In this document: positions 32,848 through 63,915 of the stretch, piece by piece
How the letters are laid out: each line of letters starts with the position of its first letter
Position numbering within the stretch: position 1 is the first letter of the stretch
NCBI GenBank assembly: GCA_964057225.1
Contig: OZ059898.1
Coordinates: 9,362,001-9,426,000 of the forward strand
Direction of reading: 5' to 3'
Length of the DNA: 64,000 bases
From: Auanema rhodensis
Taxonomy: Eukaryota > Animalia > Nematoda
Notes under the pieces: generated by a model
Seen by the model: the letters and a program-made list of their open reading frames with translations, nothing else
Told to the model about the DNA's origin: nothing
Databases searched by the model: none
Made by a program: the position numbers and the translations under genes

Positions 32848-32911
32848 AGTAGAGAGCCATGCCGAATTTACTAACCACGCCCCCAAACAGTTGCTAAAAA
32901 CATACTTTTGA
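32114..32911 (+). pseudogene. Mariner transposase truncated after the second catalytic Asp; last ~21 codons read from the Maverick TIR
   Basis: HTH region (TCKKWFARFKSG), FSPHLL (WVPHEL-like), VTEDEKWILY, LLHDNAR, then an abrupt switch to AGTAGAGAGC at 32848. The third Asp is missing. Confidence 0.9.
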
Positions 32912-34360
32912 GGGTGTCAGCTGCTAAAAACATACTTTTGGGGGCGTCAGCTGTCAAAATCATATTTTCGGCGTCAGCTGTCAAAAACATACTTTTCCTC
33001 CCGAGGCAGGCTCTCGAGCCTGCGCATGGATCAAAATGCATGATTTTTTTTAAAATCTTTTTTTTAAAATTATTTTTTAATGTATTTTTAAATGAATTTT
33101 TATTATTTATATATTTGTTAATTGTATTTGTAAATATTTTTAAAATTATTTCTTTTTAAATGTATTTTTAATATTTATATATGTTTTAAATATTATTATT
33201 TAATTATTTCTTTTTAAATGTATTTTATATATTTTTAAAATTATCTCCTTCTAAATGTATTTTTAATATTTATACTTTTGAATAAACTTTTTAATATATA
33301 TTGTTTTTGTTTTAATTTATAAAATTTGAATTTTTTTAAAAGGTAATCAATATGTTCACCGTACCTCTTATGGGTTAATCAATGGAACTCATATCGAAGG
33401 TTAATTCGATAAGAAGTAATAAATATTTAAACTAAATTTAATGAAACACATATCGAAGGTTAATTCGATAAGATCGTTAAAACAGGTGCACTACACATGT
33501 ACCACATGGCAAAAGTTGTGTTCATAAAAATATGATAAATAGCTGTACACCACATCTACCCATAACGCTAAAGAATACTTACTATGCCAAGGGGTCATGA
33601 GTATATACAAATATTTTCAAACTTTTTAACATCAAAAATGTTACTTTAAAGTAATTGTTGTTGTAGCCCTAATAGTTTATAAATGTTCTGATAGCTAATG
33701 TATTTCATAACTATGTTCAAGAATAGAATAAATGTTTCGTAATATATTTATTGAACAATAAATTTTCATTTAAAATTAGAACATGTGTTAACATTTTGTA
33801 AGAGTTTCTTTTTTACAAAGTGTCTGAAAATGTTGTACTTGTAATCGGATGTGTACAAGTCTGTTTTTCGCAACAATCCTGCGTTTCCTCAGTGGGATCC
33901 AACATTTTGAATTAGTCTTTCCTAAACTATAAAAATAAGAATGTACCACAGCTGTTATAATAAGAATATGGATACAATATTAAACGATCCTATTGTAATC
34001 TTCCACAATTTTGGATGACAGTTGTTATTGTATAGGGACTTGTCACAAATGAGTTGAATTATTGTTAAATATTTGGATTTACGAAATCGAATGCTGTAAC
34101 AAGTAATTAATAAGCGGATAGTTTACAGGTTGTTAATCCGGCAACTGTTGGCGCAATCGGTGTGTTTTAGCGCATTTGGCAGCTGTTTGCGTAACAAATT
34201 GCTAATTAATGTATAAATACATATATTTGTTGTAATATATAACAAATAGAAAAGCCGCATACAGCAGTCAGCTGTTTTGTGAAAGAGGCGGAGTGGGTAG
34301 AACTTTACAACAAAGTTTGTATAAAAGGTGGCAAAATTTTTTAGACCGAAATTTGCATTT

Positions 34361-34582: not shown

Positions 34583-35176
34583 ATGTAGCGTTCCGCTCTT
34601 GTTGATGTAGAGAATATTGTACCTTCGACACCGGAACCGGATGTTCCACGACCACCCACACCAGGACCCAACTTTGCTGCCACATTCTTTGGTAAGGTTT
34701 TATTTTTGTTATTAATTATTTTTTGTTTAGACACACCAAAAAAGCAGGTACAAATCTCAAAGGATAGCTCTCCACAGCAGCCTGTAGTTATGAGACCAAT
34801 ATGTCTCTGCAAAACTTGTAGGGATACATTGCAAGTCGTAGACGAGTACCACTGTTTCAGCCTCTGTGTCAAGTGTAGAGCGAGGAATGATGCCTTAGGG
34901 CTTTTAAAAGTTTTCCGTCATTATAAACCTGAAAATTCAACAATCAATGTAAGATTATAAAATTATTAATTCTAATTATTATTTTTTCTTTTACAGATGC
35001 GTTCCTATTCTAGCATGTCATCAAAACAATTGTTGAATAATATGGGTTACATTGCCATTTATACTGATGAGTCAACTGTCAAGTCTTTTGGTTATAAGCA
35101 GAATGTGTTCTACTTTAAATTAAGTCAACAGGCGCTCAACTTGAATATGCTTATCCGTTTTGATCCATCGTTTTGA
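34583..35176 (+). pseudogene. Maverick A 3-exon accessory gene (D-box/CDK-site/Cys-His protein) with a nonsense codon at position 2
   Basis: Exons 34583-34691, 34731-34948 and 34997-35176 splice in frame. It starts ATG TAG where copy C has ATG AAG, and intron positions match copy C. Confidence 0.75.
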
Positions 35177-35472: not shown

Positions 35473-35623
35473 TTATACATTTAAATTTTCTGCATCTATC
35501 CATTCATTAAAGTTGTCGGGATAGCCACTCCATTTTACAAATACTTGGCGTTTACCATTTCGTGTACGCTCTTTCAAAACTTTCTCAATATAGTACTGGT
35601 TGCTTTTATTAGTAGCCAACACA
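35473..35623 (-). pseudogene. Maverick A integrase C-terminus (chromodomain), split by the insertion of B
   Basis: Encodes VLATNKSNQYYIEKVLKERTRNGKRQVFVKWSGYPDNFNEWIDAENLNV*, nearly identical to the integrases of B and C. Confidence 0.92.
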
Positions 35624-35850
35624 AGTAGAGAGCCGTGCAAAATTTACTAACCACGCCCCCAAACAGTTGCTAAAAACATACTTTTGAAGGCGCGCTAGTA
35701 GAGAGCCGTGCAAAATTTACTAACCACGCCCCCGAACAGCTGTCAAAAACATACTTTTGGGGGCGTCAGCTGCTAAAAACATACTTTTGGGGCGCGTCAG
35801 CTGTCAAAAACATATTTTTGAGCGTCAGCTGTTAAAATCATATTTTGGGA
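35624..35850 (+). repeat. Doubled terminus (AGTAGAGAGCC at 35624 and 35697) plus ~30-bp CAGCTG-containing TIR sub-repeats
   Basis: Direct reading; the unit CAGCTG(T/C)(C/T)AAAAACATACTTTT also occurs at 32888-32996 and 49249-49357. Confidence 0.9.
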
Positions 35851-35901
35851 TCATGGTTCATGGATTTTCCTTTTTTAAATTTAAAAATCATGATTTAAAG
35901 C

Positions 35902-35955
<54 letters not shown>

Positions 35956-36230
35956 TATTTTAAATTTGTTTATTCAAATGTATGTATATAGTTTTAATTA
36001 CTTTTAAATATATTAAGTAAAAATAAAAATTATAAATTTTAAATATTTAAATATTTAAATATGTAAATTTGTTTTTTAAATTTTATTTATTTATTAAATT
36101 TATTAATAATGTTTGTTTACTTATTTTGTTTATTTTTTATTGTATTGTGTTTGTATTGTTTTTATTTTAAAGAACAGTAAAATTTTTGCATGTATATCGT
36201 TTTGTTCACCGTACTTGTTACGGGTAATTC

Positions 36231-36380
36231 AATGGAACACATATCGAAGGTTAATTCGATAAGAACGATATGAAATACAAAATTTAATGGAACACATATC
36301 GAAGGTTAATTCGATAAGAACGATATAAAATACCAAAATTTAATGGAACACATATCGAAAGTTAATTCGATAAGAACGAC
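36231..36380. repeat. Subterminal array of palindromic TATCGAA-GGTTAA-TTCGATA units, three copies, period 55-56 bp
   Basis: AATGGAACACATATCGAAGGTTAATTCGATAAGAAC-type units at 36231, 36286 and 36342; two copies each at ~33381-33473 (A) and ~49745-49840 (C). Confidence 0.9.
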
Positions 36381-36775
36381 ATTAAATTATTAATTTTTGA
36401 AATTACAAATTGTTATTAATTATATTTATTCTAACAAGTAAAGGTTTCAAATTATAATAAAAGATTAGTTTTAAACTTTATGTTACTAATATAACAATAC
36501 AATAACTCTATAGAGCACACATTGAAGGTAAATACGACGGGATTAACAAACAGTTGCGCTGACCTCAATGAAACGCATAAAGTTAATTTAATAAGAACTA
36601 ATAACAAAAATTAATCCGACGGGGACAATAAAAACAGATGTATTCAATAAGCTTATTTATTTTAAAGTTTATCGCAACTGCTAGTTTTGACAGCTGTACC
36701 CAAATCCATGTTACATAACAAATTACAATGCCAACAGCAATGTGTAGACTGATATATTCATTATATCAAGGTACA

Positions 36776-39700
36776 ATGGCTGCTAATAGGTTGTGTCTTT
36801 TTGATTATTTGTTTGTAAACTTTTTCTTTTTTTTAGTTATAAACGTTTATGTGAAGAGCTAGGATTTGATTATGAAGAGATTAATCAGCTCAGGTAATTT
36901 AACAATATTTTGAATCTTTATATATATTTTGTTTTTTTAGTAAACGTATAAAGTTTACCGAGGCTGGTGGGATCGAGCTCTGTGAGCCCACGTCACCCAC
37001 TTTTAACAGTGGGCCCTCATCATCAAGGGTTATTGAAGTAATAACCTTGGATGACAGTGATGAGTAAGCGATATTAAAATTATAACATTTAGTTTTTTCT
37101 TTTTAAGCGAATGGGATCCTGCTACCCCATCAACCAGTGGAGGGCAAGTCGGATATGGAGCGGCATTCAACGATGTCTGTAAAATAGAGGTGCGATCTTT
37201 TATTTACATATCATTTCGTAATATATCTTTTGAAACATGAAATTTTCTCTTGCTCCAGTTGCATATTTTGAAAACATTTTGAAATTTATTTCTCTTTTTC
37301 AATTGCATTCATAAAATTCTCTCTCTCTCATCTTTACATTTCATCTCAATCTATATCTTTTATCAAACAAATTGCAAGTATTTTGAAACTTATATATTCA
37401 TTCTTTTGAACAGCATTCATTTTAAAATCTTTACATTTCATCTCACTATATATATTTCTTTCAACCATTTTTCATAAAATTCTCTCTCTCTCATCTTTAC
37501 ATTTCATCTCAATCTATATCTTTTATCAAACAAATTGCAAGTATTTTGAAACTTATATATTCATTCTTTTGAACAGCATTCATTTTAAAATCTTTACATT
37601 TCATCTCACTATATATATTTCTTTCAACCATTTTTGAATTCTTACAAATTATAAATATTTCAAACATTTTGAACTAGTAAAATAATAAAACACAATCTTG
37701 ATCTTTTCATTTATTTTTAAACATTAACAAATGTTTATAAAAGAAAAAACTTTATATTTAAAAATCAAATGCCATTTATTTTTAATAAAAGAATATAAAA
37801 ATAATTTAAAGAAAAGTAAATTTATTAAAAGTTATAAACAAACATTATTTATATTTAAACTAAATATCTAAACTAAATAACCATTATAAAAAGTGTGTAT
37901 TATAGTGGTCACACCGACGCATAAAACGAACTGGTCGGTTCACCAACGTGGTCGTTAGATCGCTCACGTTCCCACATTTGGAAGCCATTAATGAGCCAAT
38001 GCATGTTGTCATGCCGCGGCTATTTAATGAGTTTCTTGATCGGTGCCTTGCTGAAAGTGGTGTGCCAGATAAACAAAAAGCGCTATTTTGTTTATCAATA
38101 GAGCACCCATCCTTTGAAAAGGGATCCATATTTATGGATTTCCGTAGAAGGGAGCATTTGGATGGCGTTGCCATCATGAATGCCATCAGCAAGGTGCAGC
38201 AATCAAAGCGAGAGGCTGTAATTAGCCAGGCAATGAATATTGAAATGTATGTGTTTGATGAGAGACCAGTGCAGCCAAGCCTGATGCCTGGTGAAGGTAG
38301 AGTTGGTTTCTATTTTGATGCCGAACTCAAAATACCTGGCACAATTGAGAACACTGATACACATTGCCTGGCTAGAGCAGCAGTTGTGGGAATGTGGAAA
38401 GCCGATGAAGAGGCAGCAGAAGATGTTGTTGAGAAGCGGAGGATTCAAAATCTTCGTCGCAACTACATCTTGTTGCCAAATCAACCACATCATATCAATT
38501 TATTGAATAGGTGTGGTATTTCTGTACATTTACCAAATTATAATTTGAACCATTTAAATATTATTGCAAGTTGTAATACAGACTATAAGTTTGTAGTATA
38601 CGCTAGGCCACCTGGACAGCGTATGTACGCTATTCAGCGTATCTTTAATGAAACGGCTAGCAAAGTGGTAACACTAGGCTACCGAAATAATCATTATGAC
38701 TGTATTACAACTTGTAGTAGATCACAGATTTTTGATGGTATTATATGCCAACACTGTAAATTATCTTACAAAACAGTGTTGCATAGATGTAAAGCCAAGT
38801 GTAAGAAATGCCACACCTTAAAATGTAATTCGATGGAAAATGTGGTTGAGAGTAGCATAAGATGTGATAGTTGTAGAGTTTTGTTCAAAACTCGTCAATG
38901 CTTTGACAGGCATATTAGAAAAACATGTCGAATGTTTAAGGTAATTTAAAAAATATATATAAAATTTAACATGACTAAATTCAGACATGTGAAAACTGTG
39001 ATCATTATCACAGAGTACGTGCTGATAGACCGCACAATTGCAATGAGAAATTTTGCAAAAAGTGTGGGCAAACAAAGCCTGAAGATCATTCTTGTTGTTG
39101 GGTACCACCTAACGACAAGAAGAAGGATCAGTTAAAAAAGAGGCAAGAGAAATACAAGGTTTGTATTTTACATCTTTACAAGTGTAATGCTTACTTGTTT
39201 AAGATTATTTTCTATGACTTTGAAACGGTTGTGTTAAAAAGCGGTACAAATGTTCATGAATATGCAGATGAACAATGGCCCAATATGGTTGTGTATAATA
39301 AATTTTGTGAAAGTTGTATAGATGCCAACTCATGTGAAAAATGCACAACCAAGGAGGGCCATTTTGGGTATCAACAAGGTGATAGTGAATGGTCTGTAAC
39401 AGATCGTTTCCTTGATTGGTTACTCAACTCTGTTGAGAATGATAATGCAATTTTGATTGCGCATAATGGTTCACGCTTTGACATACATTTCTTGGTGTCT
39501 AGGCTGATAAACCGTGGTATATATCCTGATCCAATTTTAAATGGGACCAAGATTATAAGCATGGTTGTCAAGCCTTTAAGAGGTCAAAAATTTAATCATT
39601 TATATTTTAAAGATAGTTATTTATTAGTGCCTTTACCCCTATCAGCGTTGCCCAAGGCATTTGGTGTACCTGATATGAGTAAAGGACAGTTTCCTTACCT

Positions 39701-42132
39701 CTTTAACCATCCAATAAATTATGGCAAAGTGTTACCATCTTTACCACCAAAACAGTACTATTGTACTGCTAGAATGAAAGCAGAAGACCTAGCTTCATTC
39801 GATATTTGGTATGAAGAGCGTAATCAAAGAGCGTTTGATTTTGATGAAGAGCTTTTGGAATATTGTAGGACAGATGTCCGTATTTTAACCAACTGTATGA
39901 AAGTTTACATGAAGTTGGCAACCGCCACCACTGGCTGGAACCCTGTCATACAATGTATGACATTTGCCAGTTTCTCTTTATTCCAGGCAAGTTTTTTAAA
40001 ATACAAGCATTTTCAAAACTATTATATTACAGTTGAAAATGAACCACATTAAAGAGAACCAAGTGGGTATTCTGCCCGAGACTGGTTATTATGCCGGTCA
40101 AAAGCAGAGTATAATAGCCATAAAGTATATAAAATGGCTAGAACAAGGATTGGGCCGCCCATTAATGCATAAGCTTAATGGTGGTGAATTTGCAGTGAGA
40201 GTAGATGGCCATCGCTATCTACTCGATGCTTATGACCCCGTTGCCAATCATGGCTATGAGGTGAGTAATTTGTAATAAATGTAAAAAGTGCAAATTTTTG
40301 TAGATTAATGGTTGTATTTACCATGGTTGCCCCCAGTGCACCAACAAGAGCGCTATAGCACCAGGCAGAAATGGTGAAACAATGGAAGAGGTAATTGTGA
40401 CTTTTTTAATCATTTTAATTTTTAAAATTTAGGTTTATGATAAAACCATGAAAAGGCTTGAAGCAATTCAAAGCCAAGGCATTAGTGTTACCACAGTGTG
40501 GGAGCACGAAATTAATGCACAAATTTCGGCCAATGAAGAAATGGCGAAATTTATGCGTGAAACAAATGTTGTTACACGCTTGGCACCTAGAGATGCCTTT
40601 ACCGGTGGCCGCACCCAGACATATAAGCTTTTGGCACAAGCTTCGGATAGATACTCGCTCGAGTATGTGGACTTTTGTTCACTATATCCATATGTCACCG
40701 CTTTTGATGCCTATTACCCTATAGGTAATCCCAAAGTTATTACTGAGGGTTTCAAAAGCTTTGAGACATGTTGCCCATACAAGGGGCTAGTAAAATGTGA
40801 CGTGCTTGCACCCACAAATTTGCTGTACCCTGTATTAGGCACACGTATTGGCGGTAAACTTATTTTTACAAACTGCCGCACTTGTGCAGTCAAAAGTAAA
40901 AATGTAACATGTGAGCACCAGAATGATGTAAATGCTAGAAAGCTGCATCTAACCGTGACACATGTTGAGCTCGAGTGTGCCATACAACGTGGCTATAAAG
41001 TGCTTAATGTGCATGAGGTGTGGCACTGGGAAGAATGGCAACAAGGCGGCCTGTTTAAAGAGTTTGTACAAAAGTACATAAAAATTAAACAAGAGGCGTC
41101 GGGCTGGCCAAAGCCAAACATGACAGAGGAAGAAAAGGTATGTTTTAACAAAAGTATCACATTAAATAGAATTTTACAGGTGATTTATCTCCAAGAGCAC
41201 GAGGAGAACACTGGTGTTGCTCTGGAGAGCAATAAAATTGAGAAGAATGCTGCCATGCGTAGCATTGCCAAACTGCAGCTAAATAGGTTTGTAAACTTTT
41301 TAAAACAATACATTACAAATTTGCTTATAGTGTCTGGGGTAAAATGGGTCAAAGACCTGATAAAGCCCAAACCAAGATTATTGGTGTTGAGGACCCAGAA
41401 ATTGGTAGGATCATTACTGATCCTGCAAGGGAACTCACTGGGTTCAAAATTGTGGATAATGTTGCGTACTGCACAACAGTACCAGAGGATTCACATTTGG
41501 CACCACCGCCTTTTACAAATGTAGCTATTGCGGCCTATACAACCGCTCATGCAAGGCTACTATTGTATAAGGCAATGGAGAAAATTGGAAAGAATTTGGT
41601 GTATACAGGTAATGTTATACTTTGTATTCAATTTAAACTTACATTATTTAGACACGGATTCACTAATTTATCAAAGGTGCCTGGATGAGCCAGATCCAAT
41701 TGAGGATATGAAGGGTGAATGGTTAGGTAAACTAACCTCTGAAATACCCGATGGTTGGTCAATGACCAAGTTTGTGTCACCAGCGGCAAAAGTTTATAGT
41801 TATAAACTTGTAAATGCAGCTGGTGATGTAAAATATGTAACAAAGGCAAAGGGAGTGGTAAGTACGAGCTTTGACTTTTCAAATAATTTTATAATTTACA
41901 GACGTTGGACCACACGGCAGCGTCAGTGGTAAACTTTGAAAGTATGGAGCGACTGGTTCGCGGACTCGTTATGGATGGAGAGAAATTGGTTTTAAAAACC
42001 AACACAACCTTGTTAAAGAGGCAACTCGGTGCCATATCCACAATGGATATGACAAAAAGTACTAGAGTCGTAATGGATAAACTTTGTTATCTTCAAGATT
42101 ATAGTACTTTACCCTACGGTTATTGTGAATAA
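36776..42132 (+). CDS. Protein-primed family B DNA polymerase (pPolB), 14 exons, ~1369 aa
   Basis: Exons 36776-36789, 36837-36893, 36941-37063, 37108-37189, 37906-38940, 38985-39158, 39204-39986, 40033-40260, 40304-40390, 40433-41137, 41180-41286, 41331-41608, 41652-41857 and 41902-42132 join in one frame. Motifs: FYDFET, AHNGSRFD, YCRTDV, YVDFCSLYP, KLQLNSVWGK, YTDTDS, LPYGY. Confidence 0.9.
37308..37635. repeat. 163-bp tandem duplication inside pPolB intron 4
   Basis: TTCATAAAATTCTCTCTCTCTCATC starts at 37308 and at 37471. Confidence 0.9.
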
Positions 42133-42270
42133 TATATTTGAATTTATAAATTTTTATCTTGTATATATTTGTATTTATAAAATTTTATCATTGTACATGT
42201 ATTTATTTTTAAAAATAGTTGTATTAATAAATTTTATTCTTAAATCTTTTAAAGAATTTTATTACATACA

Positions 42271-43605
42271 TTACAAACTGGTATCAATATATGGAGCACG
42301 ATTGTTGTCAATGGAAAGAATAGAGTCATACTCTGCATAAACAATTGCATATAAGCCCTCTTGCGGCGTTTGTTGACCAAATTCCAATTTCAAGGCTACA
42401 TTACCTTGTCGTATAACATCAAATAACTCTGACGAATGCACAGTAGGAGAAATATCAAATACAAAAAATGTGAAACCAGCTTTATACATTGCTGGTGTAA
42501 TACCATTGGATGAATCTGTACGACCAAGTCCCAAACCTTCCAGCATGTCAATATATGCTGTGGCATAGGAAGATCGCCATTCTAAATTATAAGGACGGGT
42601 AGGTATTACCCTATTGTTGAGCGTCAAGTATATATTTTTCAAATCAAACGGTTTAAAGTTGAATGGCGAATGTTTAAAAGTACCATTATAGGCGTGTGCG
42701 CCAACAAGACCTACTACAACACGTTTTGGTGTGTGAGACGTGAATAATATATTATTAGGTGAATCCAAGCGGCCTCCTTCTATGAAATAAGAGCGCATTT
42801 TCACTGATGTCATGGGGTAGTGTATTCGATCCTTTGCGAGTTTATCTTCTATAGCCATAGCTAATCCAGCGTTTAGATCAAACTCTTGAATGAGCAAATG
42901 TACATCGCTGATATCTACTTTCAAATTTGGAAACTCCTCCTTTAATGTAGTATCCTTGTTTTCATTATTCCAGCCTAGAGTGTCAATTAAAAAGTTATCA
43001 CGGTTTGGATATGCAGTTAGCTCCATTTTTGAATAGTTTACAAACAGTCGCTCTTGATTAAATAGGTCGATACTGACGGGAGCAGCCATCTCACACAATA
43101 TGCCATTTTTTACAAGTGCTTGACGCGTTCTAAATCCAGCACTGGATGCATTATCTATATATCTATCAGCATAATAGCCTGATATGGCAAGTTTGCTCTC
43201 TTTAACATCGTTGCTATACATTAAAATATTCTCGATATATGTTTTATAGGCATGATTCACGGTAGAGTCATACACGCTAACATCACCAATTTTCAAATGA
43301 TACGAATGTATTAAACTGGCAGCAAATTGTTGACATGGTGCAAAAACAAGGTTGTCTGGTACTGGATCACCGTTTGTGGTTACAATTTTAAATTTTACAT
43401 TCAACCAACATCTTCTCAGATTGAGGAATGATTTGGAATTTTGAGCTATAACAAATTCCCATGGTCCTTGAGGAAGAAACGTATTTTTCAAAGGGACTTG
43501 TACAGTACGAGTAGACTCTACACCTAATGCCGACGCTGGTATATCACCATAGTTGATATTAGGTAAAAGGGCTTGTGCTGATTTTGAATCTATCAATTTA
43601 GCCAT
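42271..43605 (-). CDS. Major capsid protein (double jelly-roll, Polinton PY/hexon-like), 444 aa
   Basis: Size, position and motifs (YKTYIENILMYS, DLFNQER, YNGTFKHSPFNFKPF, GFTFFVFDISP) typical of Polinton MCP. Confidence 0.88.
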   Translation of the reverse strand: MAKLIDSKSAQALLPNINYGDIPASALGVESTRTVQVPLKNTFLPQGPWEFVIAQNSKSFLNLRRCWLNVKFKIVTTNGDPVPDNLVFAPCQQFAASLIHSYHLKIGDVSVYDSTVNHAYKTYIENILMYSNDVKESKLAISGYYADRYIDNASSAGFRTRQALVKNGILCEMAAPVSIDLFNQERLFVNYSKMELTAYPNRDNFLIDTLGWNNENKDTTLKEEFPNLKVDISDVHLLIQEFDLNAGLAMAIEDKLAKDRIHYPMTSVKMRSYFIEGGRLDSPNNILFTSHTPKRVVVGLVGAHAYNGTFKHSPFNFKPFDLKNIYLTLNNRVIPTRPYNLEWRSSYATAYIDMLEGLGLGRTDSSNGITPAMYKAGFTFFVFDISPTVHSSELFDVIRQGNVALKLEFGQQTPQEGLYAIVYAEYDSILSIDNNRAPYIDTSL

Positions 43606-44058
43606 TTAAATGTGAAACGACCGCTCACGAGTGATGCACAACCGCTTATGAGGTTTTGTGGTTTTGCGTCGTCGCCGTTTGCCCAAGCCGGTAAGATCTC
43701 GTATAGCTTGCCGGCCGGCTGTTTTAAGAGTTTCCTTGATATTATCGCCTTTCAGCACCCCATCGACAATTTCATTACCAGTTTTCAGCAACTGTCCGCC
43801 AAGAGGTGAATTTACAACTGGACTTTTGCTTACAGCACTGGATAAGGCGTTTCTTCCGGCATTGATGAGATTTTGGGCTATAGGTGATTGAATGATGCGT
43901 GGTAGAAATGATGCCAAAGTTGCCAAAATACCACCCAAACCATGACCCCTCTGCATTCCACGTTGAAACATCATTCCGCTAAATGGGGCGCCACCCATTT
44001 GTTGATTTAAAAGTGTTGTCCATTGAATAGAGTTGACATCCAAAAGGAGGTGCGGCAT
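43606..44058 (-). CDS. Putative virion core / membrane-active protein (pVII/pX-like)
   Basis: QRGMQRGHGLGG followed by an amphipathic helix (ILATLASFLPRII) and a basic tail (GLGKRRRRK); its stop abuts the MCP ATG. Confidence 0.65.
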   Translation of the reverse strand: MPHLLLDVNSIQWTTLLNQQMGGAPFSGMMFQRGMQRGHGLGGILATLASFLPRIIQSPIAQNLINAGRNALSSAVSKSPVVNSPLGGQLLKTGNEIVDGVLKGDNIKETLKTAGRQAIRDLTGLGKRRRRKTTKPHKRLCITRERSFHI

Positions 44059-44109
44059 ATCGAACCGCACGCGCGCAATACAAAAGTTACACTAGATCAT
44101 TCTACTAAA

Positions 44110-44565
44110 ATGTATTCGTCTGAAATAGTATCACTATTGCAATCTGTCCCCAGCACTCGGAAACTATTCCTCGGTGTATTTAGCGCTGATACTCTACCCA
44201 AAACGCGTCGTAAAAACTTTGCACTTGTCGTAAATACTGACACACATGATAAGCCAGGCACACATTGGCAGGTCATCTTTGTCCGTAACAAGCAAGCCTA
44301 TTTTTTCTGTAGCTTGGGATATAAAATGAACAAGTACATTCAAAATTATCTGGCCAAATATAAAAAGGTAAAAATTAATACTTGCAAACCACAACGTTTA
44401 ATTGAATACACTTGTGGTGGCTATGTGGTATTTGTAATACTAATGTTGTCGGCTGGTAATTCATTTGAAAGCATTTGTTCATTTTTTAAACTATTGAAAA
44501 ATGATGATGTCTTTATTAAAGCGTTTATGCATAAAGTATTCGACTATAAATTGACTACTATATAA
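44110..44565 (+). CDS. Adenain-like cysteine maturation protease
   Basis: FLGVFSADTLP, VVNTD...PGTHW (catalytic His), Q...TCGGY (catalytic Cys). Confidence 0.9.
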   Translation: MYSSEIVSLLQSVPSTRKLFLGVFSADTLPKTRRKNFALVVNTDTHDKPGTHWQVIFVRNKQAYFFCSLGYKMNKYIQNYLAKYKKVKINTCKPQRLIEYTCGGYVVFVILMLSAGNSFESICSFFKLLKNDDVFIKAFMHKVFDYKLTTI

Positions 44566-44606
44566 GAAATTTGTCATTAATAACCTGCTACATTACGTGA
44601 TCAGTT

Positions 44607-44777
44607 ATGAATATTCCTTGTCACTGTGAATTATGTGTCAAATACACGTTGGAGCAATCTAAACCAGCGCCTTTATACAGGAGAATGTTGAAATGTATTT
44701 CAGTGCCATTTATTAAAGGTATAGCATTGGGATTGGGCTTTTGTACAACACTAGTCATATTATTGCTCATTATATAA
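44607..44777 (+). CDS. 56-aa protein with CxCxxC and a C-terminal transmembrane helix
   Basis: MNIPCHCELC...VPFIKGIALGLGFCTTLVILLLII*; fills the gap between the protease and zinc-finger genes; also open in C (55643-55813). Confidence 0.5.
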   Translation: MNIPCHCELCVKYTLEQSKPAPLYRRMLKCISVPFIKGIALGLGFCTTLVILLLII

Positions 44778-44818
44778 AAGTGGGTTGATTGCGTGTGGTC
44801 GTTTTTCATTTTCCTCTA

Positions 44819-45283
44819 ATGGAACTTTTATGTAACAAATATTGTGGTACATGCAAGGAAATATTTTCTTCAACCAAGCATTTTAGTGATCACGTTTTGA
44901 AAAGACATGCAGGGATTCAACCCATATGTAACAATTATATCAGCAATGCTGACTTTATTCAAAAATATGGACATTTGGATGGTGTTCGTAGACGTTTGTG
45001 CCCTCATTGTAGTGAAACTTTTGGAACAAGATTCAATTGTGAGCGTCATATTCGGCGTATTCATAATAATAATGGAACGAATGGTGAAGATGGTGATGGA
45101 AATGATACCAGCAAACCCTTTGAAAAAGCTGAGGAGTTTGTACATTCAACCCAATCAAAAAGATGCCGCAGCAATAGTGACGGAGAACATTCACAACACG
45201 AGCCGAGCGACAAACAAAACTGCCCTAAACTATCTTTTAAACCTTCGAAAATAAAAATGTGGTATTGTATAACTGTTGAATAA
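44819..45283 (+). CDS. C2H2 zinc-finger protein (two fingers), Maverick accessory gene
   Basis: CGTCKEIFSSTKHFSDHVLKRH and CPHCSETFGTRFNCERHIRRIH; TATATAAAAG at 44771-44780. Confidence 0.8.
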   Translation: MELLCNKYCGTCKEIFSSTKHFSDHVLKRHAGIQPICNNYISNADFIQKYGHLDGVRRRLCPHCSETFGTRFNCERHIRRIHNNNGTNGEDGDGNDTSKPFEKAEEFVHSTQSKRCRSNSDGEHSQHEPSDKQNCPKLSFKPSKIKMWYCITVE

Positions 45284-45288
45284 AACGT

Positions 45289-46146
45289 TTATTTCATATT
45301 TTTAACATGTAATGTAACAACTGTAGAACCATAATTAAATTGCATAGGACGACCAAATTCATCTAAAATTTCAATACGTATGGTATCGAGTGTTTGTCTA
45401 GTGATTGGTACATAACGAATAGGATTAAATGTTTTGGCAATCATTTTACCAAATTCAGTAGGAGGTGGTACAGGTAAACATGCAAGTAAATTAGCTTTCA
45501 CATTACCAAGAATGGAATATTCTACAATATCACAATATATATACATTGTATTAATGTTATTTGAAAAATCAATGGGACGCCTGGCTATTATTGTATGGTT
45601 GATGTTTTTATTTTCAAAACCAAGAAAATATGCAAAATCATCACCAAGCGTTGCATTCAACAATAGTCGCTTGCTTGTTACAAACTCTATGCGCTGCAAT
45701 GTTTTGTTAAACTGAAATGTGGCGTCCGCGAGCATTTCCTCCACTAGCTTAGCCTCAGCCTGGCGATTATTATACCATTTTTTTACATCTTCATCTTTAT
45801 CTATTAAACTTTTTATACGTGCTTCTTCCTCAGCTCCAAGAGGCTTTGTATTGTTGGCGATAAATGATTCTCTTCCAGCATTGATTCCGCGTATTATTTC
45901 ATCACCATTTGCATAGTTGCCTTTAGGCAAGTGTAGAATAAATTTTCTATTGGAAAAACGTAGTGTATAAGATAAATCTTTTTGAACATTTAATATAGAA
46001 CAAGGAAAAATGATGTCTGTCAGCCCAATACAATACCTATTATTGCGTAGCCTTAGTGTTTCAGGTAATCTGGTAAGAAACACTGATGATGTATTACTTT
46101 TTTCAGAGTCAACTGATGATGGAAGAGTAATGTAAAAATCATCCAT
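45289..46146 (-). CDS. Minor capsid protein (penton, Polinton PX), 285 aa
   Basis: DFYITLPSS...NTSSVFLTRLP N-terminus; MYIYCDIVEYSILG, IRYVPI, IRIEILDEFGRPMQF...VTLH. Confidence 0.85.
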   Translation of the reverse strand: MDDFYITLPSSVDSEKSNTSSVFLTRLPETLRLRNNRYCIGLTDIIFPCSILNVQKDLSYTLRFSNRKFILHLPKGNYANGDEIIRGINAGRESFIANNTKPLGAEEEARIKSLIDKDEDVKKWYNNRQAEAKLVEEMLADATFQFNKTLQRIEFVTSKRLLLNATLGDDFAYFLGFENKNINHTIIARRPIDFSNNINTMYIYCDIVEYSILGNVKANLLACLPVPPPTEFGKMIAKTFNPIRYVPITRQTLDTIRIEILDEFGRPMQFNYGSTVVTLHVKNMK

Positions 46147-46225
46147 GACAAACCACCACTTGATACGTGTACACTATTGCAAATGAAATCATTTGCATTT
46201 TAGGTACATTTACGAGTGGTTGATT
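46147..46225. promoter_or_regulatory. Candidate bidirectional promoter between penton and ATPase, containing a palindrome
   Basis: 79-bp gap between divergent ATGs; TGCAAATGA-AA-TCATTTGCA at 46178-46197. Confidence 0.45.
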
Positions 46226-46873
46226 ATGGTTTTCAGCTTCAAACTACCCAGTCAGACAACTGTAATAGGTGCTACCCAATGCGGTAAAACAACCCTCATA
46301 AAGCACATATGTGAAAATACTGAAAAGTTTTTCAACGTCCCCATTGATAGAATATTCTGGTTTAGTCAATGTGGGTCATCGTCAGGTGTACCAATAAATG
46401 ATGAGCGTTTAATAATTATTCAAGGGCCTCCTGATCCTGATTTGATAAAAGAACAAAAGGGAGTAAATACTATACTAGTGCTGGATGATTTGATGAACTT
46501 TTTTTCATCGAATAAAGCAGCAAAGGAATTACTCAACAACATTTTTACAGTGTGGGCACATCACTGGAATTTGGCAGTGTTTAATCTTGTGCAAGCTGCA
46601 TTTCAGCTAGACAGGACCAGTCGAATTAATAGTACATATATAATACTGATGAAAAGTCATTCGGATATATTACAAATACGTAATTGTCTGCAACAATTAT
46701 TTGGCCCCCGCTTTAAAAATGCTCTAGAAGCATATGATGATGCAATGTCTACACCCTATAGTCATTTACTGATTGACAACCATCCTTTAACAAGTGAGAA
46801 ACAGCGTATACTATCAGATATAACAGCGGAGCACCCTATTGTTTATGTTGCCAGAAATGTGTTTAGTGTTTAA
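46226..46873 (+). CDS. A32/FtsK-like DNA packaging ATPase
   Basis: Walker A GATQCGKTT, Walker B ILVLDD, HHWNLAVFNLVQ. Confidence 0.92.
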   Translation: MVFSFKLPSQTTVIGATQCGKTTLIKHICENTEKFFNVPIDRIFWFSQCGSSSGVPINDERLIIIQGPPDPDLIKEQKGVNTILVLDDLMNFFSSNKAAKELLNNIFTVWAHHWNLAVFNLVQAAFQLDRTSRINSTYIILMKSHSDILQIRNCLQQLFGPRFKNALEAYDDAMSTPYSHLLIDNHPLTSEKQRILSDITAEHPIVYVARNVFSV

Positions 46874-46885
46874 AGTGCTTGTTCA

Positions 46886-47194
46886 ATGAGTGGTCGTATT
46901 TTGTCAAATTTCAACTTTTTGTCTTCTTGCGCCAAAACTCCTTGTTCTGTTCCCTCATTTTCTTTTGCACAAATTGAAATTATTGTTGAAATTGTATTTA
47001 ATATTGTGAAAAATAATAATTTTCTTTTAACTAACAAGGAATATAAAACCCTCTTGCCCATATCTTCATTATTACGTCAAATAGCTTTGATACGCACACC
47101 GGAAAAGGCTAAATCATTATTGGCAACGCTTTCACACAAACAATTGAAAACAATAGTTACATGTGGTATTGCCTATTTTGGTTTTAAATCATGA
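46886..47194 (+). CDS. Maverick hypothetical protein, 102 aa
   Basis: Tightly packed between the ATPase and the next ORF (ATGA overlap); open in both B and C. Confidence 0.7.
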   Translation: MSGRILSNFNFLSSCAKTPCSVPSFSFAQIEIIVEIVFNIVKNNNFLLTNKEYKTLLPISSLLRQIALIRTPEKAKSLLATLSHKQLKTIVTCGIAYFGFKS

Positions 47195-47907
47195 AGCTCA
47201 ACCATAAATATCGACTAATTCCTGTCGACGAGGAAACAGTTAATATAGACAAGTTTGATGCAGAGCTCAAGCTTTTACGAGAAAATAGAGCTATACCCGA
47301 CTATAAAAAAGCTGAACTATACGAAGACTTGATTGCTCGTCTCAAAAACTATAGAGAAAGTATAGATGCGCCCATATCAGTACAAGTGGAAAATGCTGAT
47401 CCACCTCTATTGCCAGAATACAAGTTGCCAAGAAAGTATAACAATTTGTGGGAGAAATTTCCAGAGGTGCGCACAAACAAGAATAACCAACTTGTGATTA
47501 ATAATGAGGCTGTACCAAACACGAATATTACAAAAATTTTAGATTTTGTATTGGATAAAACAAAAACGGAGCCCAATGGATTTTCAGTCTTGTCAAAGTT
47601 TTTAGCCAGTAAAGGCGTACCTAGTTCTAACAAGAAACAAACTAGAAGAGAGTCGGCTGACAATGATTCAGTTGACGTTGTAACTAGAGCTGAACCGGCT
47701 GTTACAGACTTGGACTCTACTATATTACCTAGAACGCCTCGTCATCGTAAAGCTGTTATTCGATATTCACCATCACCGGTTCGTACACTCAAAAGTAAAA
47801 GGTCAAAGACTTTTGATACTGCCGCCGAATCATATTACACACCACAAGAAGGAGACTCACAGAATGGCCAAGGTCGTAAAAGGTTCTACATTAGATTATG
47901 GAAATGA
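47191..47907 (+). CDS. Maverick hypothetical protein, 238 aa, basic C-terminus
   Basis: KYRLIP N-terminus, QLVINNEAVPNTNITKILDF core, ends QNGQGRKRFYIRLWK; overlaps the integrase start. Confidence 0.75.
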   Translation: MKLNHKYRLIPVDEETVNIDKFDAELKLLRENRAIPDYKKAELYEDLIARLKNYRESIDAPISVQVENADPPLLPEYKLPRKYNNLWEKFPEVRTNKNNQLVINNEAVPNTNITKILDFVLDKTKTEPNGFSVLSKFLASKGVPSSNKKQTRRESADNDSVDVVTRAEPAVTDLDSTILPRTPRHRKAVIRYSPSPVRTLKSKRSKTFDTAAESYYTPQEGDSQNGQGRKRFYIRLWK

Positions 47908-48931
47908 TATTTTGGCGAGCATTTATTACGATATAAAACATCCAGCTTCATATACATCAGCCAAGAATTTATTATCGCAAGCACGAAAACATGGCATTTC
48001 AAAGGTACAAGTTGATGATTTTTTGCAAGATTCTGAAACTTTTACACGGCATAAACCAACCAGAATGCGTATGCAGACTAGAAAGACTAGAGGATGTGGT
48101 CGATTTCTAACAGTGCAAGCAGATTTGGTTGATATGCAAAAATATAAAAAATTAAACGACGGCTATGCTTACATGTTGACCATGATTGATGTTTATACAC
48201 GCATGTTATATGTTAGGCCTTTGAAAACTAAAGGTGGTATAGAGGTTGCTAGTGCATTTGAAAATTTATTCAAGAATTTTATACCAATTCAGTTGATTAC
48301 TGATAATGGCACAGAGTTTTATAATAGTCATTGTGAAAAACTATTCAAAAAGTTTGCCATACTGCACGGATCTACAAGTTCACCACAAAAGGCTGCAATG
48401 GTGGAGCGAGCAAATAGAACTTTAAAAACACGCATGATGAAATATCTCTATTACAAGAATAATCATCGTTGGATTGATATCCTAGATGATTTGGTTGAAG
48501 GAATAAACAAATCTTATAACCGCTCCATAAAAATGCGGCCCATTGATGTTAAAGCAAATATATTCATTGAAGAATATGCACCAGCTGTTAAAAGCCGCTT
48601 TAAAATTGGTGATACTGTTCGCATAAGCAAAAATAGGCGTACTTTTGAAAAAAGCTACGAGTCTGGATATACAATGGAGCTATTCACAATTGATGAGGTT
48701 GTAACCGGAAACCCAACCGTGTATAAACTTGTAGATTATAATGGTGAACGTATAAAGGGAATATTCTACGAACCTGAACTTGTCTTGGCTACTAATAAAA
48801 GCAACCAGTACTATATAGAAAAAGTTTTAAAAGAGCGTACTCGAAGCGGTAAACGTCAAGTATTTGTAAAATGGAGTGGATATCCCGACAACTTTAATGA
48901 ATGGATAGATGCAGAAAATTTAAATGTATAA
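47864..48931 (+). CDS. Retroviral-like (rve) DDE integrase with C-terminal chromodomain
   Basis: VQADLVDM / LITDNGTEF / MVERANRT triad; chromodomain YYIEKVL...VKWSGYPDNFNEWI. Confidence 0.95.
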   Translation: MAKVVKGSTLDYGNDILASIYYDIKHPASYTSAKNLLSQARKHGISKVQVDDFLQDSETFTRHKPTRMRMQTRKTRGCGRFLTVQADLVDMQKYKKLNDGYAYMLTMIDVYTRMLYVRPLKTKGGIEVASAFENLFKNFIPIQLITDNGTEFYNSHCEKLFKKFAILHGSTSSPQKAAMVERANRTLKTRMMKYLYYKNNHRWIDILDDLVEGINKSYNRSIKMRPIDVKANIFIEEYAPAVKSRFKIGDTVRISKNRRTFEKSYESGYTMELFTIDEVVTGNPTVYKLVDYNGERIKGIFYEPELVLATNKSNQYYIEKVLKERTRSGKRQVFVKWSGYPDNFNEWIDAENLNV

Positions 48932-49131
48932 TTTTTCAATGTTATAAACAATTGTAATTATAATAAATGATTTATTTGATATATCGCATAATGTAACAAT
49001 AAAAAACCAGCAAAATACAAACAACAATTCAACCTGCAAAAAAAAAAAATTAGACTATTCAAATTTTCAAATAGTATGTTTTTAGCAACTGTTTGGGGGC
49101 GTGGTTAGTAAATTTTGCACGGCTCTCTACT

Positions 49132-49208
49132 AACACAAGTTTAGGCTCATAGAATATTCTCTTTATACGTTCACCATTATAATCTACAAGTTTATACACG
49201 GTTGGGTT
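49132..49208 (-). pseudogene. 77-bp sliver of the Maverick A integrase between B and C
   Basis: Encodes NPTVYKLVDYNGERIKRIFYEPKLV, contiguous with 35473-35623 once the TSD is removed. Confidence 0.92.
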
Positions 49209-50662
49209 AGTAGAGAGCCATGCCGAATTTACTAACCACGCCCCCAAACAGTTGCTAAAAACATACTTTTGAGGGCGTCAGCTGCTAAAAACATACTTTT
49301 GGGGGCGTCAGCTGTCAAAATCATATTTTCGGCGTCAGCTGTCAAAAATATACTTTTCCTCCCGAGGCAGGCTCTCGAGCCTGCGCATGGATAAAAATGC
49401 ATGATTTTTTTTAAAATCTTTTTTTAAAATTATTTTTTAATGTATTTTTAAATGAATTTTTATTATTTATATATTTGTTAATTGTATTTGTAAATATTTT
49501 TAAAATTATTTCTTTTTAAATGTATTTTTAATATTTATATATGTTTTAAATATTATGATTTAATTATTTCTTTTTAAATGTATTTTTAGTAATATTTCTT
49601 TTTAAATGTATTTTAATATTCATATATTTTTGAATTGTATCTTTAAAACTGAATAAATTATTTCTCATATATATATTTTTTTATTTATTTAAATATTTTT
49701 AAAAGGTAATCAATATGTTCACCGTACCACTTATGGGTTAATCGGTGGAACTCATATCGAAGGTCAATTCGATAAGAAGTACTAAATATTTAAACTAAAT
49801 TTAATGAAACACATATCGAAGGTTAATTCGATAAGAACGACATTAAATTATTAATTTTTGAAATTACAAATTGTTATTAATTATATTTATTCTAACAAGT
49901 AAAAGTTTCAAATTAAAAGAAAAGACTAGTTTTAAACTTTATTTTACTAATATAACAATACAATAACTAAATAGAGCACACATTGAAGGTAAATACAATA
50001 AGATTAACAAACAGTTGCGCTGACCTCAATGAAACGCATATCGATGGTTAATAAACAGTAATAACTGCACTGTGGGGGTTTAAATATAGTATAATCATTT
50101 TAACATTTCAAAAGTTTTAGTTTCGTAATATAATCATTTTTAAATATTCAAGAATGAAATATTTTTACATATAAAACGTTGGCAGTCACATGTTTTGTGC
50201 TACAATATGGGTGTAAAACTATACTATGAATAATATATGAGCTATTAAGCAAAGTTTAAAAAGCCTAAATGTTTTACAGAGATGGCTGTTGTTTATGGCA
50301 CAAACGGTAAACAATAATGTTTAAAGAGATGTAAAAACTAATTAATATGCAGATTGTTTACAGGTTCAGAGTGCGCCAACTGTTGGCAACTGTCGATGAG
50401 ATGAGTATATCTGCATAAATATGCTGTAAAATCTAATTAATAAAAGAATTTCATCAGCAAACTTGATTGTAACACAATGGGTTGTACTTTACAAAAATCT
50501 TTGTATAAAAGGTTGGCAATTTTGCTACATTTACATTTCAGCTCTGCCGACTATCCGAGGATCCGACGTTTCACCATCTCCTGCCACTCTTTGCCAATCG
50601 CCATAGACTGCTCCTCTCTGCAAGTTTGCCTTATATTTTAGAAAGTTGGATCTTTAGCGGAA

Positions 50663-51241
50663 ATGAAGCGTGCTGTACTTGCTGATGTGACAAATGTTGT
50701 GCGCAAATCGCCTGAACCTGAAGTACCACGACCACCCACACCAGCACCAAATTTCACAAGTTTTGGTATGAACCTTAACTTGTCTTTTTTAAATCTTTAA
50801 TTTAGATTCACCAATAAAGCAGATTGAGATTCTGAGAGAGAGCACTCCACCAAGGAGTGTATTAATGAGACCGATTTGTCTCTGCAAAACTTGTAGGGAA
50901 TCATTGCAGGTTATAGACGAGTATCACTGTTTCAGCCTCTGTATAAAGTGTAGAGGAAGGAATGATGCGTTGGGTCTTTTGAAGGAATTTCGTCACTATA
51001 AGCCCGAAAACTTTTCTATTAATGTAAGCTTGCATATTTATTTATTTTCAATTTTATCATTTTTTAGATGCGCTCTTATAACACCATGACGTGCAAGCAA
51101 TTGTTGAACAATATGGGCTTTATTGTTATATATGCAGATGAGGCTACTGTAAAGACTTTTGGTTATAAGCAGAATGTATTCTACTTTAAACTAAGTCCAG
51201 AAGCACTCAACCTGAACATCCGCTTTGATCCTTCATTTTGA
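50663..51241 (+). CDS. Maverick C 3-exon accessory gene, ~164 aa (D-box, S/T-P sites, Cys/His cluster)
   Basis: Exons 50663-50765, 50806-51023 and 51068-51241 splice in frame: MKRAVLADVTNVVRKSPEPEVPRPPTP...SPIK...TPPR...ICLCKTC...HCFSLCIKC...FDPSF*; TATAAAAG at ~50504. Confidence 0.78.
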
Positions 51242-51538
51242 CTACAACAAGCACAAATAGTACAATTGGCGTTTTATTCTTGTTTTGTTAGGTGGCATTT
51301 TTATATTCTCAGCCGTAACATTTTTTTTTCCAGCTCTTGCGAATATCCATCAATGGCTCATCAATTGAGGACGAATGATCAACCAACTGGTAAGAATTTG
51401 AAAATTTGAATAGTCTACATTTTTTTTTTTCCAGGTTGAATTGTTGTTTGTATTTTGCTGGTTTTTTATTGTTACATTATGCGATATATATCAAATAAAT
51501 CATTTATTATAATTACAATTGTTTATAACATTGAAAAA

Positions 51539-52606
51539 TTATACATTTAAATTTTTTGCATCTATCCATTCATTAAAGTTGTCGGGATATCCACTCCATT
51601 TTACAAATACTTGGCGTTTACCGCTTCGAGTACGCTCTTTCAAAACTTTTTCTATATAGTACTTGTTGCTTTTATTAGTAGCCAAGACAAGTTCAGGTTC
51701 GTAGAATATTCCCTTTATACGTTCACCATTATAATCTACAAGTTTATACACGGTTGGGTTTCCGGTTACAACCTCATCAATTGTGAACAGCTCCATTGTA
51801 TATCCAGACTCGTAGCTTTTTTCAAAAGTACGCCTATTTTTGCTTATGCGAATAGTATCACCAATTTTAAAGCGGCTTTTAACAGCTGGTGCATATTCTT
51901 CAATGAATATATTTGCTTTAACATCAATGGGCCGCATTTTTATAGAGCGGTTATAAGATTTGTTTATTCCTTCAACCAAATCATCTAGGATATCAATCCA
52001 ACGATGATTATTCTTGTAATAGAGATATTTCATCATGCGTGTTTTTAAAGTTCTATTTGCTCGCTCCACCATTGCAGCCTTTTGTGGTGAACTTGTAGAT
52101 CCGTGCAGTATGGCAAACTTTTTGAATAGTTTTTCACAATGACTATTATAAAACTCTGTGCCATTATCAGTAATCAACTGAATTGGTATAAAATTCTTGA
52201 ATAAATTTTCAAATGCACTAGCAACCTCTATACCACCTTTAGTTTTCAAAGGCCTAACATATAACATGCGTGTATAAACATCAATCATGGTCAACATGTA
52301 AGCATAGCCGTCGTTTAATTTTTTATATTTTTGCATATCAACCAAATCTGCTTGCACTGTTAGAAATCGACCACATCCTCTAGTCTTTCTAGTCTGCATA
52401 CGCATTCTGGTTGGTTTATGCCGTGTAAAAGTTTCAGAATCTTGCAAAAAATCATCAACTTGTACCTTTGAAATGCCATGTTTTCGTGCTTGCTATAATA
52501 AATTCTTGGCTGATGTATATGAAGCTGGATGTTTTATATCGTAATAAATGCTCGCCAAAATATCATTTCCATAATCTAATGTAGAACCTTTTACGACCTT
52601 GGCCAT
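51539..52606 (-). pseudogene. Integrase of Maverick C with a premature stop
   Basis: TCG in B is TAG at 52493-52495. Confidence 0.88.
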
Positions 52607-55136: not shown

Positions 55137-55601
55137 TTATTCAACAGTTATACAATACCACATTTTTATTTTCGAAGGTTTAAAAGATAGTTTAGGGCAG
55201 TTTTGTTTGTCGCTCGGCTCGTGTTGTGAATGTTCTCCGTCACTATTGCTGCGGCATCTTTTTGATTGGGTTGAATGTACAAACTCCTCAGCTTTTTCAA
55301 AGGGTTTGCTGGTATCATTTCCATCACCATCTTCACCATTCGTTCCATTATTATTATGAATACGCCGAATATGACGCTCACAATTGAATCTTGTTCCAAA
55401 AGTTTCACTACAATGAGGGCACAAACGTCTACGAACACCATCCAAATGTCCATATTTTTGAATAAAGTCAGCATTGCTGATATAATTGTTACATATGGAT
55501 TGAATCCCTGCATGCCTTTTCAAAACGTGATCACTAAAATGCTTGGTTGAAGAAAATATTTCCTTGCATGTACCACAATATTTGTTACATAAAAGTTCCA
55601 T
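55137..55601 (-). CDS. C2H2 zinc-finger protein, copy C
   Basis: Near-identical to 44819-45283, frame open. Confidence 0.75.
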   Translation of the reverse strand: MELLCNKYCGTCKEIFSSTKHFSDHVLKRHAGIQSICNNYISNADFIQKYGHLDGVRRRLCPHCSETFGTRFNCERHIRRIHNNNGTNGEDGDGNDTSKPFEKAEEFVHSTQSKRCRSNSDGEHSQHEPSDKQNCPKLSFKPSKIKMWYCITVE

Positions 55602-60605: not shown

Positions 60606-60619
60606 AATATGAATGAATA

Positions 60620-63106: not shown

Positions 63107-63402
63107 AAGCATAAGAGAAGAATTTTTTGTGGATATAAAATTTAAAATTAAAAATTGAAATAGTAATGAAACAAAAGAAAAAGATAGCATTATGTGCGAA
63201 TATAACCATTGTAATAAAACAATATCATTGTTTTTCTTTCTTTTCAATTTATGGTAGTATCAAGTTTCTTTTATCCAACTCAGTTACATAACACATAACC
63301 TTTTGTACAGGCTCTAAAATTCATTGTATCTGTAACAAGATAACCTAAACACACTATTGTACAATGAACTAATAGATGTTAATCAGCGTTTAAAGTCCAG
63401 AT

Positions 63403-63915
63403 GTGAACATGTATATAAGGATGCAGCTCATGTCTTTCCTATATTCCATGAAAATGGAAGATATTGTCTCGAATATAATTGAGAATGCTTCCTTTGAGGA
63501 AGAGCTCAAAAAAAAATCCCATCTACCTAACACTGCTGCCAATCTGAGGCTACTAATTGTGCTTGAAAAGAGGCTCTACGAGCACCTAGCTAGCGCGGTG
63601 AACCATCTATCCGAACGACTGGACAATATTCAACATTCGTTAAATCTGAAACTAGACAATTTAGCCATTCAGACTGCTCCTAAAGCTTCATGTGTATTCT
63701 GCAATAAACCGACAGCTGATGGGCACCGTACTGCGGCCTGTCCGATTTATCCTTCCTCACCGGAACGCACTCTCTGTCTTCATGAACTGGGGTTATGCAT
63801 CAGATGTTGTAATCAAAAACATCCAGCGATATGCGAGGTATCCTGCTATAGATGTAAGGCGGATACGCATCATGGAGTGGTTTGTGGAGATATAAAACGT
63901 AAAAGACCTTCGTAG
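63403..63915 (+). CDS. Accessory ORF with a helical region and three BEL/Pao Gag-type zinc knuckles (start uncertain)
   Basis: CVFC..H..C / CIRC..H..C / CYRC..HH..C. Confidence 0.7.
   Translation: MNMYIRMQLMSFLYSMKMEDIVSNIIENASFEEELKKKSHLPNTAANLRLLIVLEKRLYEHLASAVNHLSERLDNIQHSLNLKLDNLAIQTAPKASCVFCNKPTADGHRTAACPIYPSSPERTLCLHELGLCIRCCNQKHPAICEVSCYRCKADTHHGVVCGDIKRKRPS

Follow-up and report, generated by a model that had tools for sequence, protein, structure and literature searches.

A spliced accessory gene in the cargo slot of an Auanema rhodensis Maverick, with a credible D-box and a frameshifting exitron

A small spliced gene lying between a terminal inverted repeat (TIR) and the integrase of a nematode transposon raises the question of what it does for the element, and whether it could link the element to the host cell cycle. 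The answer bears on what triggers Polinton/Maverick activity and on whether, like DNA viruses, these elements exert control over the host cell. The locus lies in a 64,000-nucleotide stretch of A. rhodensis contig OZ059898.1 (positions 9,362,001 to 9,426,000; hereafter the window), the right half of which holds three Maverick pieces, A, B and C. An initial annotation made from the sequence had described, in A and C, a three-exon gene for a protein with a destruction box (D-box), CDK sites and a zinc cluster. The coordinates of the features are collected in Table 1.

Table 1. Features of the accessory gene and its carrier elements in the window
Feature	Positions	Strand	Remarks
TIR of element A	32848..33476	+	sequence comparison
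Copy A of the gene	34583..35176	+	exons 34583-34691, 34731-34948, 34997-35176; junctions all in one 800-nt X1 contig
Exitron of A, 43 nt	34818..34860	+	skipped in A-type X1 contig; removal gives stop at codon 78
Element B	35624..49131	.	inserted in the integrase of A; 6-bp target repeat
TIR of element C (integrase end)	49209..50065	+	95% to A 32848-33476; also B far end 35696-36605
TATA-like block of C	50500..50512	+	13-nt exact match, elsewhere only upstream of A (34316); putative promoter
C coding exon 1	50663..50765	+	D-box, S16-P, T26-P, proline-rich; junction in contigs X1, X2, X4
C coding exon 2	50806..51023	+	S36-P, T48-P, then Cys/His cluster; dN/dS 0.065 over codons 58-107
Exitron of C, 43 nt, GT-AG	50893..50935	+	skipped in C-type contigs X1, X2; removal gives stop at codon 67
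C coding exon 3	51068..51241	+	57 codons and stop; junction 51023/51068 in X1, X2, X3
3' UTR intron of C, 45 nt	51390..51434	+	one X1 contig
Integrase of C (rve and chromo)	51539..52492	-	convergent with the accessory gene

The carrier element is a Maverick/Polinton: element B encodes pPolB, an rve-chromo integrase, an ATPase and an adenain-like protease, and both TIR sequence and a 6-bp repeat are found. Pfam profiles DNA_pol_B_2 and rve with Chromo scored above cut-off in the carrier, and Peptidase_C5 and ATPase below it. B has AGTAGAGAGCC as its ends, flanked by the 6-bp target repeat, and is 97.6% identical to C, which is an inverted copy of it. Element A is the older element and hosts B inside its integrase, which continues at 49132-49208, up to the start of the C TIR (49209); the best of the named relatives of the integrase belongs to Auanema sp. 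JU1783 (69% over 59% of the query), which, together with introns of 39-48 nt, points to a likely rhabditid nematode host. B contains no copy of the accessory gene, and most of its TIR at the integrase end is missing.

Several side observations concern these elements and their surroundings. The 6-bp repeat of B within the A integrase lies at 35618-35623, and the C TIR interrupts this integrase again 77 bp beyond (49132-49208), a nesting that suggests that Mavericks may insert preferentially into each other. At the left end of B (35624-35697) a second TIR start comes after a TIR stub of 69 nt, and at the right end only ~62 nt of TIR are left. The pPolB of B is multi-exon in appearance (36775-37200, 37906-41932), and the small exons upstream of it include a hydrophobic-acidic stretch that, by eye, we take to resemble a SUMO-interaction motif. 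Core Maverick genes have been reported as intronless in Caenorhabditis plicata and fusogens as conserved in nematode Polintons; on inspection of the B core genes (42271-48931), no fusogen-sized ORF was noticed. The match of C to B stops at 60605, adjoining a 670-codon Phlebovirus-G2-like ORF (61094-63106) with a Cys/His-rich ORF nearby (63409-63915), and the ORFs within 60605-63915 are probably a Bel/Pao-type retrotransposon. A mariner-type transposase fragment (32114-32911) lies immediately left of the A TIR, a further TIR start is found at ~31656, and tandem repetition is also seen at 2457-3907 (a 374-bp unit in ~4 copies) and at 37308-37633 (an exact duplication of 163 bp).

The accessory gene is almost certainly a real gene. 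The exon coordinates proposed for C, and intron positions common to A and C, were confirmed, giving an open 164-codon frame in C with GT-AG introns of 40 and 44 nt and, in A, the same layout with 168 codons and introns of 39 and 48 nt. Each copy has, as had been described, a TIR on one side and the 3' end of an integrase on the other. The presumed transcript data consist of contigs from four runs (X1-X4) of one study, at depth 3-7; the contigs skip GT-AG segments exactly and so behave as spliced RNA, the runs themselves not being recorded as RNA. Relative to the window they show 1-5% divergence and a 6-nt insertion, and thus come from sister copies or alleles, not surely from these loci. Intron 1 is removed in X1, X2 (with a loose end) and X4, and intron 2 in X1, X2 and X3, so that both predicted C junctions (50765/50806 and 51023/51068) are spliced; a single 800-nt A-type contig of X1 lacks every A intron, and A- and C-type RNA are both present in the same runs. 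The three-exon model holds for these two introns and is incomplete beyond them, since exon 2 contains an additional 43-nt exitron and the 3' UTR a 45-nt intron. Downstream of the C gene, AATAAA is found at 51494. Copy A, although identical in layout, carries a stop at codon 2 (34586-34588) that breaks it in this window and is absent from A-type contigs of X1 and X2; this broken state, the known cargo slot, and the frameshifting exitron in many transcripts had all been missed in the initial annotation.

The gene is under purifying selection. The C and A proteins are identical at 121 of 168 positions, and the comparison of these two sequences gave dN 0.14, dS 1.24 and a dN/dS of 0.12, far from 1 (0.116; bootstrap 0.06-0.19; 163 codons). 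By region, the ratio is 0.065 over codons 58-107 and 0.071 over codons 108-164, and it is 0.21-0.25 in the N-terminal tail. The greater divergence of the gene relative to the core, pointed out initially, is borne out: nucleotide identity between A and C is 77% for the gene versus 95% for the outer TIR and 94% for the integrase 3' end, and dS in the integrase 3' end is 0.23 over 49 codons and 0.13 over 23, versus 1.24 in the gene. Judged from these identities, A and C are two old alleles of a cargo slot within young, near-identical backbones. The GC content of the gene (0.37) is close to that of the core genes (0.36) and above that of the TIR (0.24) only.

One explanation of the two old alleles is that conflict maintains them, the gene being a selfish cargo that targets the host embryo and not the element, whether toxin, antidote or incompatibility factor, with the degron clearing maternally loaded protein. 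The presence of both types in the same runs, a dS of 1.2 between alleles on near-identical backbones, and a slot occupied elsewhere by WASP and KRMA, one of them ancestral to a toxin (accessible part of 10.1101/2022.07.12.499685), are consistent with such a cargo. However, selection is strongly purifying rather than diversifying, the GC content is not raised over the core genes, the slot holds no partner gene, and the protein carries no protease, kinase or other enzyme signature, and we consider this explanation distinctly improbable.

Upstream of both copies lies TATAAAAG (50504 in C, 34320 in A), as had been noted. TATA as the mark of an 'early' gene class was considered and rejected: among ten starts in element B it is well placed only at the C2H2 gene, and the TATA matches near the B pPolB sit in AT-rich, probably intronic DNA. 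This C2H2 zinc-finger gene, found in B (44819-45283) and C (55137-55601) with TATAAAAG 46 nt upstream, is a second candidate regulator. Both cargo promoters also contain a near-palindrome with CAACTGTTG (34142-34154, 50373-50385). Each includes a TTGGCGC that we take to be E2F-like, which with 12 TTSSCGC sites in the window is a lead only.

The exitron in exon 2 codes for the stretch between Cys64 and Ser78 of the zinc cluster, and its removal shifts the frame to leave a stub of 66 (C) or 77 (A) residues; in C the frameshift stop falls 77 nt ahead of the next junction. It is removed in three of the four contigs passing its donor, contigs which give no splice ratio; X3 does not cover the site. 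The kept form is represented by one C-type X4 contig that lacks intron 1 and extends 29 nt into the segment, where it terminates. Both RNA forms very probably exist. Between A and C the segment is identical at 37 of 43 nt, has no indel and a GC content of 42-47%, and four of its six differences are at third positions, whereas the ordinary introns are unequal in length with a GC content of 12-23%. Of the 29 codons 3' of the segment, 13 are identical, 11 synonymous and five changed, with differences by codon position of 2/3/16. These selected codons are in frame only when the segment is kept, so that protein-level selection acts on the kept form and the segment is an exitron: a GT-AG stretch within a coding exon, free of stops and coding when kept and removed from a subset of the RNA, with the kept form thinly sampled. 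As a side observation, exon 3 starts with ATG in both copies (51068, 34997), and exitron-spliced RNA could in principle reinitiate there to give a 57-59-residue C-terminal peptide.

Whether the exitron is kept by selection or is an accident is, in our estimate, evenly balanced. In the accidental case the gene would encode an ordinary accessory zinc protein in which Cys-Arg and Cys-Phe-Ser codons spell splice sites, and the short-intron machinery of the host would cut there, dampening the gene to the benefit of the host. Random synonymous codings yield a donor/acceptor pair in 1.9% of cases at the site and 5.7% anywhere in exon 2, for a pattern defined after the site was seen, so the pair could arise by chance; moreover, the spliced frame is not conserved, with stops at codon 67 in C versus 78 in A, and a third of synonymous sites are identical anyway (75 of 116 codons identical). 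Arguing for selection, synonymous change is depressed round both sites, where 14 of the 15 codons within four of a splice site are identical versus 61 of 101 elsewhere (Fisher P 0.009; P 0.006-0.010 across three window sizes; degeneracy-matched P 0.023). In addition, the identical cut is found in two alleles at dS 1.2, such pairs number zero in 6309 nt of core ORFs, and a harmful site should have been removed by selection on the element. As an account of the whole gene, the ordinary zinc protein with an accidental exitron appears rather unlikely.

The N-terminal D-box, RAVLADVTN in C (codons 3-11, 50669-50695) and RSALVDVEN in A, is present as initially read. The consensus RxxLx[D/E][hydrophobic]xN[N/S] (PMC5717348, accessible part) is matched in both copies at P1, P4, P6, P7 and P9, while P10 is not N or S, and the five of nine positions unchanged between A and C are exactly those five (1/126). 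The full nine-residue pattern occurred in 0.135% of 20,000 shuffles and was found 0 times in 3161 residues of element B ORFs. The tail that carries it is likely unfolded, as judged from composition alone. On this evidence we lean toward a functional D-box. The listed CDK-type sites (SPIK and TPPR in C, TPKK in A) are likewise present, although the claim of CDK sites in both copies reduces to one full site common to both, S36/T38. All four N-terminal S/T-P sites are retained, with S and T exchanged at three of them, but this carries little weight, since prolines are retained in general (10 of 11). With RxxL alone in 68% of shuffles, S/T-P sites in 85%, and just two sequences compared, the D-box and CDK-like sites might be chance features of a proline-rich tail with no link to the cell cycle; the rarity of the full consensus and a conservation that falls exactly on its positions make this very unlikely. 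Altogether, the junctions and a D-box conserved at its consensus positions alone uphold the initial description of a spliced Maverick accessory gene and make its D-box credible, and the dN/dS of 0.12 adds that the gene is selected. The initial proposal that the protein times replication to S/G2-M or acts as a decoy is speculative, the searches having turned up no homologue, fold or partner.

The Cys/His cluster in C comprises C59, C61, C64, H75, C76, C80, C83 and H98 (about 50877-50996), and all eight are invariant between A and C, which would be enough for two zinc ions. Its pattern is CxCxxC-x10-HC-x3-CxxC, followed by a conserved His 14 residues further; the spacer had been given as x9 and the last His left out. 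A second RxxL at 65 and an LxxIxE at 68 lie between zinc ligands and were set aside.

These features might also make up a pseudosubstrate inhibitor of the APC/C in the manner of Emi1 or Acm1, in which the D-box docks the coactivator, the zinc domain blocks ubiquitin transfer and the stub is a D-box decoy, holding cells in a nucleotide-rich state. The Emi1-like order of D-box, linker and zinc region (PMC5717348) and the inhibition of the APC/C by many viruses (PMC13524340), both taken from the accessible parts of these papers, are in keeping with this model, as is a loose ABBA-like hexamer in both copies. The hexamer was rejected as an ABBA motif, however, since it misses the strict Fx[ILV][FY]x[DE] (PMC5717348, accessible part), and a loose match appears in 17% of shuffles. 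A motif scan found no LxCxE, CR1, KEN box, LR/IR tail or RING spacing in either protein copy, and the likeness to E1A and E7 suggested initially fails on LxCxE and CR1. There is also no LRRL tail, and the Cys spacing differs from that of the Emi1 ZBR. We regard the inhibitor model as improbable.

Homologues were mostly sought with one exon at a time, and each model was built from a single sequence, so that a domain across exons 2 and 3 could escape. A word-index search with copy A translated through its introns (107-342 aa) retained 0 of 102 candidates, comparison of exon 3 with longer proteins 0 of 3, and the only hit of exon 2 in a full HMMER scan was a tandem-repeat protein, weakly matched in six stretches, which was dismissed. 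In metagenome, viral and prokaryote contigs, none of 406, 193, 22, 11 and 230 pattern matches proved to be a relative, and the viral collection was also without relatives of the integrase; as these too are missing and the collections are poor in nematode DNA, the empty searches say little. The best PDB sequence match had an E of 0.074. Queried exon by exon, the protein matched nothing in Pfam at E 0.05 or in NCBIfam and gave weak PHROG rows for exon 1 only, and no profile matched among the zinc-finger families (RING, C2H2 and others in Pfam). In the Atlas both exons fell below the recognition threshold, with a weak RNHCP row (0.90, rank 24) that is a lead only. The structure prediction and Foldseek search proposed initially returned no fold match for the single-exon models: the exon 2 model (pLDDT 56) had no Foldseek PDB match, and for the exon 3 model (pLDDT 77, pTM 0.51) neither Foldseek at E 0.001 nor VIA at Z 2 gave a match. 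By eye, exon 3 had seemed similar to MerR/excisionase-type helix-turn-helix folds, an impression that the fold search did not uphold. The family had not been recognized in the initial annotation and no search found a homologue, so with two sequences motif conservation cannot be widened; these results, from contig collections poor in nematode DNA, weakly suggest a new cargo family. A literature search with most subscription papers outside its reach found no published work joining Maverick/Polinton with exitron and D-box, and Polinton, anaphase-promoting and cell cycle together only in a fungal genome report, accessible in part. The accessible part of a nematode Polinton survey (10.1101/2023.08.22.554363) marks undescribed ORFs without naming the accessory gene, which its supplements may list.

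Judged from its motifs and splicing, the gene likely encodes an APC/C-limited regulator with a splice-off switch. Our reading as a whole, to which we give somewhat less than an even chance, is of a short-lived regulator from the Maverick cargo slot with a likely D-box tail and an exitron-dependent, predicted two-zinc domain. The exitron-kept mRNA would yield the 164-residue protein, which the APC/C would clear from anaphase through G1, so that its presence would be largely confined to the S, G2 and early M phases of cells that divide, in germline or embryo. There the predicted zinc domain would act on some DNA or protein partner to the benefit of the element, the simplest guess, which we hold with little confidence, being that it is directed at replication or transcription of the element itself. 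Exitron removal introduces a premature stop, hence the mRNA is likely decayed or yields a 66-77-residue tail without the folded domain, and exitron splicing would provide a second, RNA-level brake on dose. A counterpoint to any need for the gene is its absence from B, although the insertion of B left a clean target repeat; the gene may be dispensable in cis, or may have been lost from B after insertion. The short-lived regulator could be extended to a cell-cycle timer with two products, an APC/C-destroyed zinc-domain activator and a spliced D-box/CDK-site peptide competing for the APC/C, with the stage or tissue splice ratio deciding Maverick replication. This extension is a long shot, and if true the timer would be an E1A-like early Polinton regulator working through the APC/C rather than Rb. 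The gene itself provides a concrete, transcribed candidate regulator and a third kind of gene in the nematode cargo slot.

Adenovirus E1A is the first gene inside the terminal repeat, has a TATA promoter, and loses its zinc-binding region by alternative splicing; the parallel is one of analogy only, as the accessory protein has no homology to E1A and no Rb-binding motifs. Identity with LxCxE 'Oncoid', Emi1, WASP or KRMA was rejected on motif, domain and spacing tests. Nematode Mavericks carry intron-bearing, high-GC cargo genes in the TIR-integrase region, including WASP and KRMA, of which one was the source of a toxin (10.1101/2022.07.12.499685, accessible part). The accessory gene shares with these cargos the slot, the poorly conserved TIR-integrase region and the presence of introns, but it has no protease, kinase or ubiquitin-like domain found in its 164 residues, its GC is not raised and it has no host-side homologue shown; introns alone do not show capture from a host because pPolB also looks intron-broken. 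The adintovirus 'Oncoid' is a small accessory protein with short cell-cycle motifs (PMC8502044, accessible part), and the likeness is that of a small Polinton-type protein with linear cell-cycle motifs beside paired CxxC (here C61-C64 and C80-C83), although the accessory protein has a D-box instead of LxCxE and CR1, is spliced, and has its gene at the integrase end, not upstream of PolB. Emi1 resembles it in the order of D-box, linker and zinc-binding region (PMC5717348, accessible part), whereas it differs from Emi1, Emi2 and Acm1 in having no LRRL tail, KEN box, strict ABBA or sequence match. The Drosophila P element IVS3 likewise uses one alternative intron to specify full-length versus truncated product (PMC7776569, accessible part), with the polarity reversed here, where the kept intron gives the long product, and with an accessory gene in place of a transposase. 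In Drosophila Or88a, as described in the accessible part of PMC10990081, a conserved intron lies within an exon, and splicing it out abolishes the frame and reduces functional transcript; Or88a is a host gene and is 15% spliced, whereas the spliced form of the Maverick gene is found in three of four contigs.
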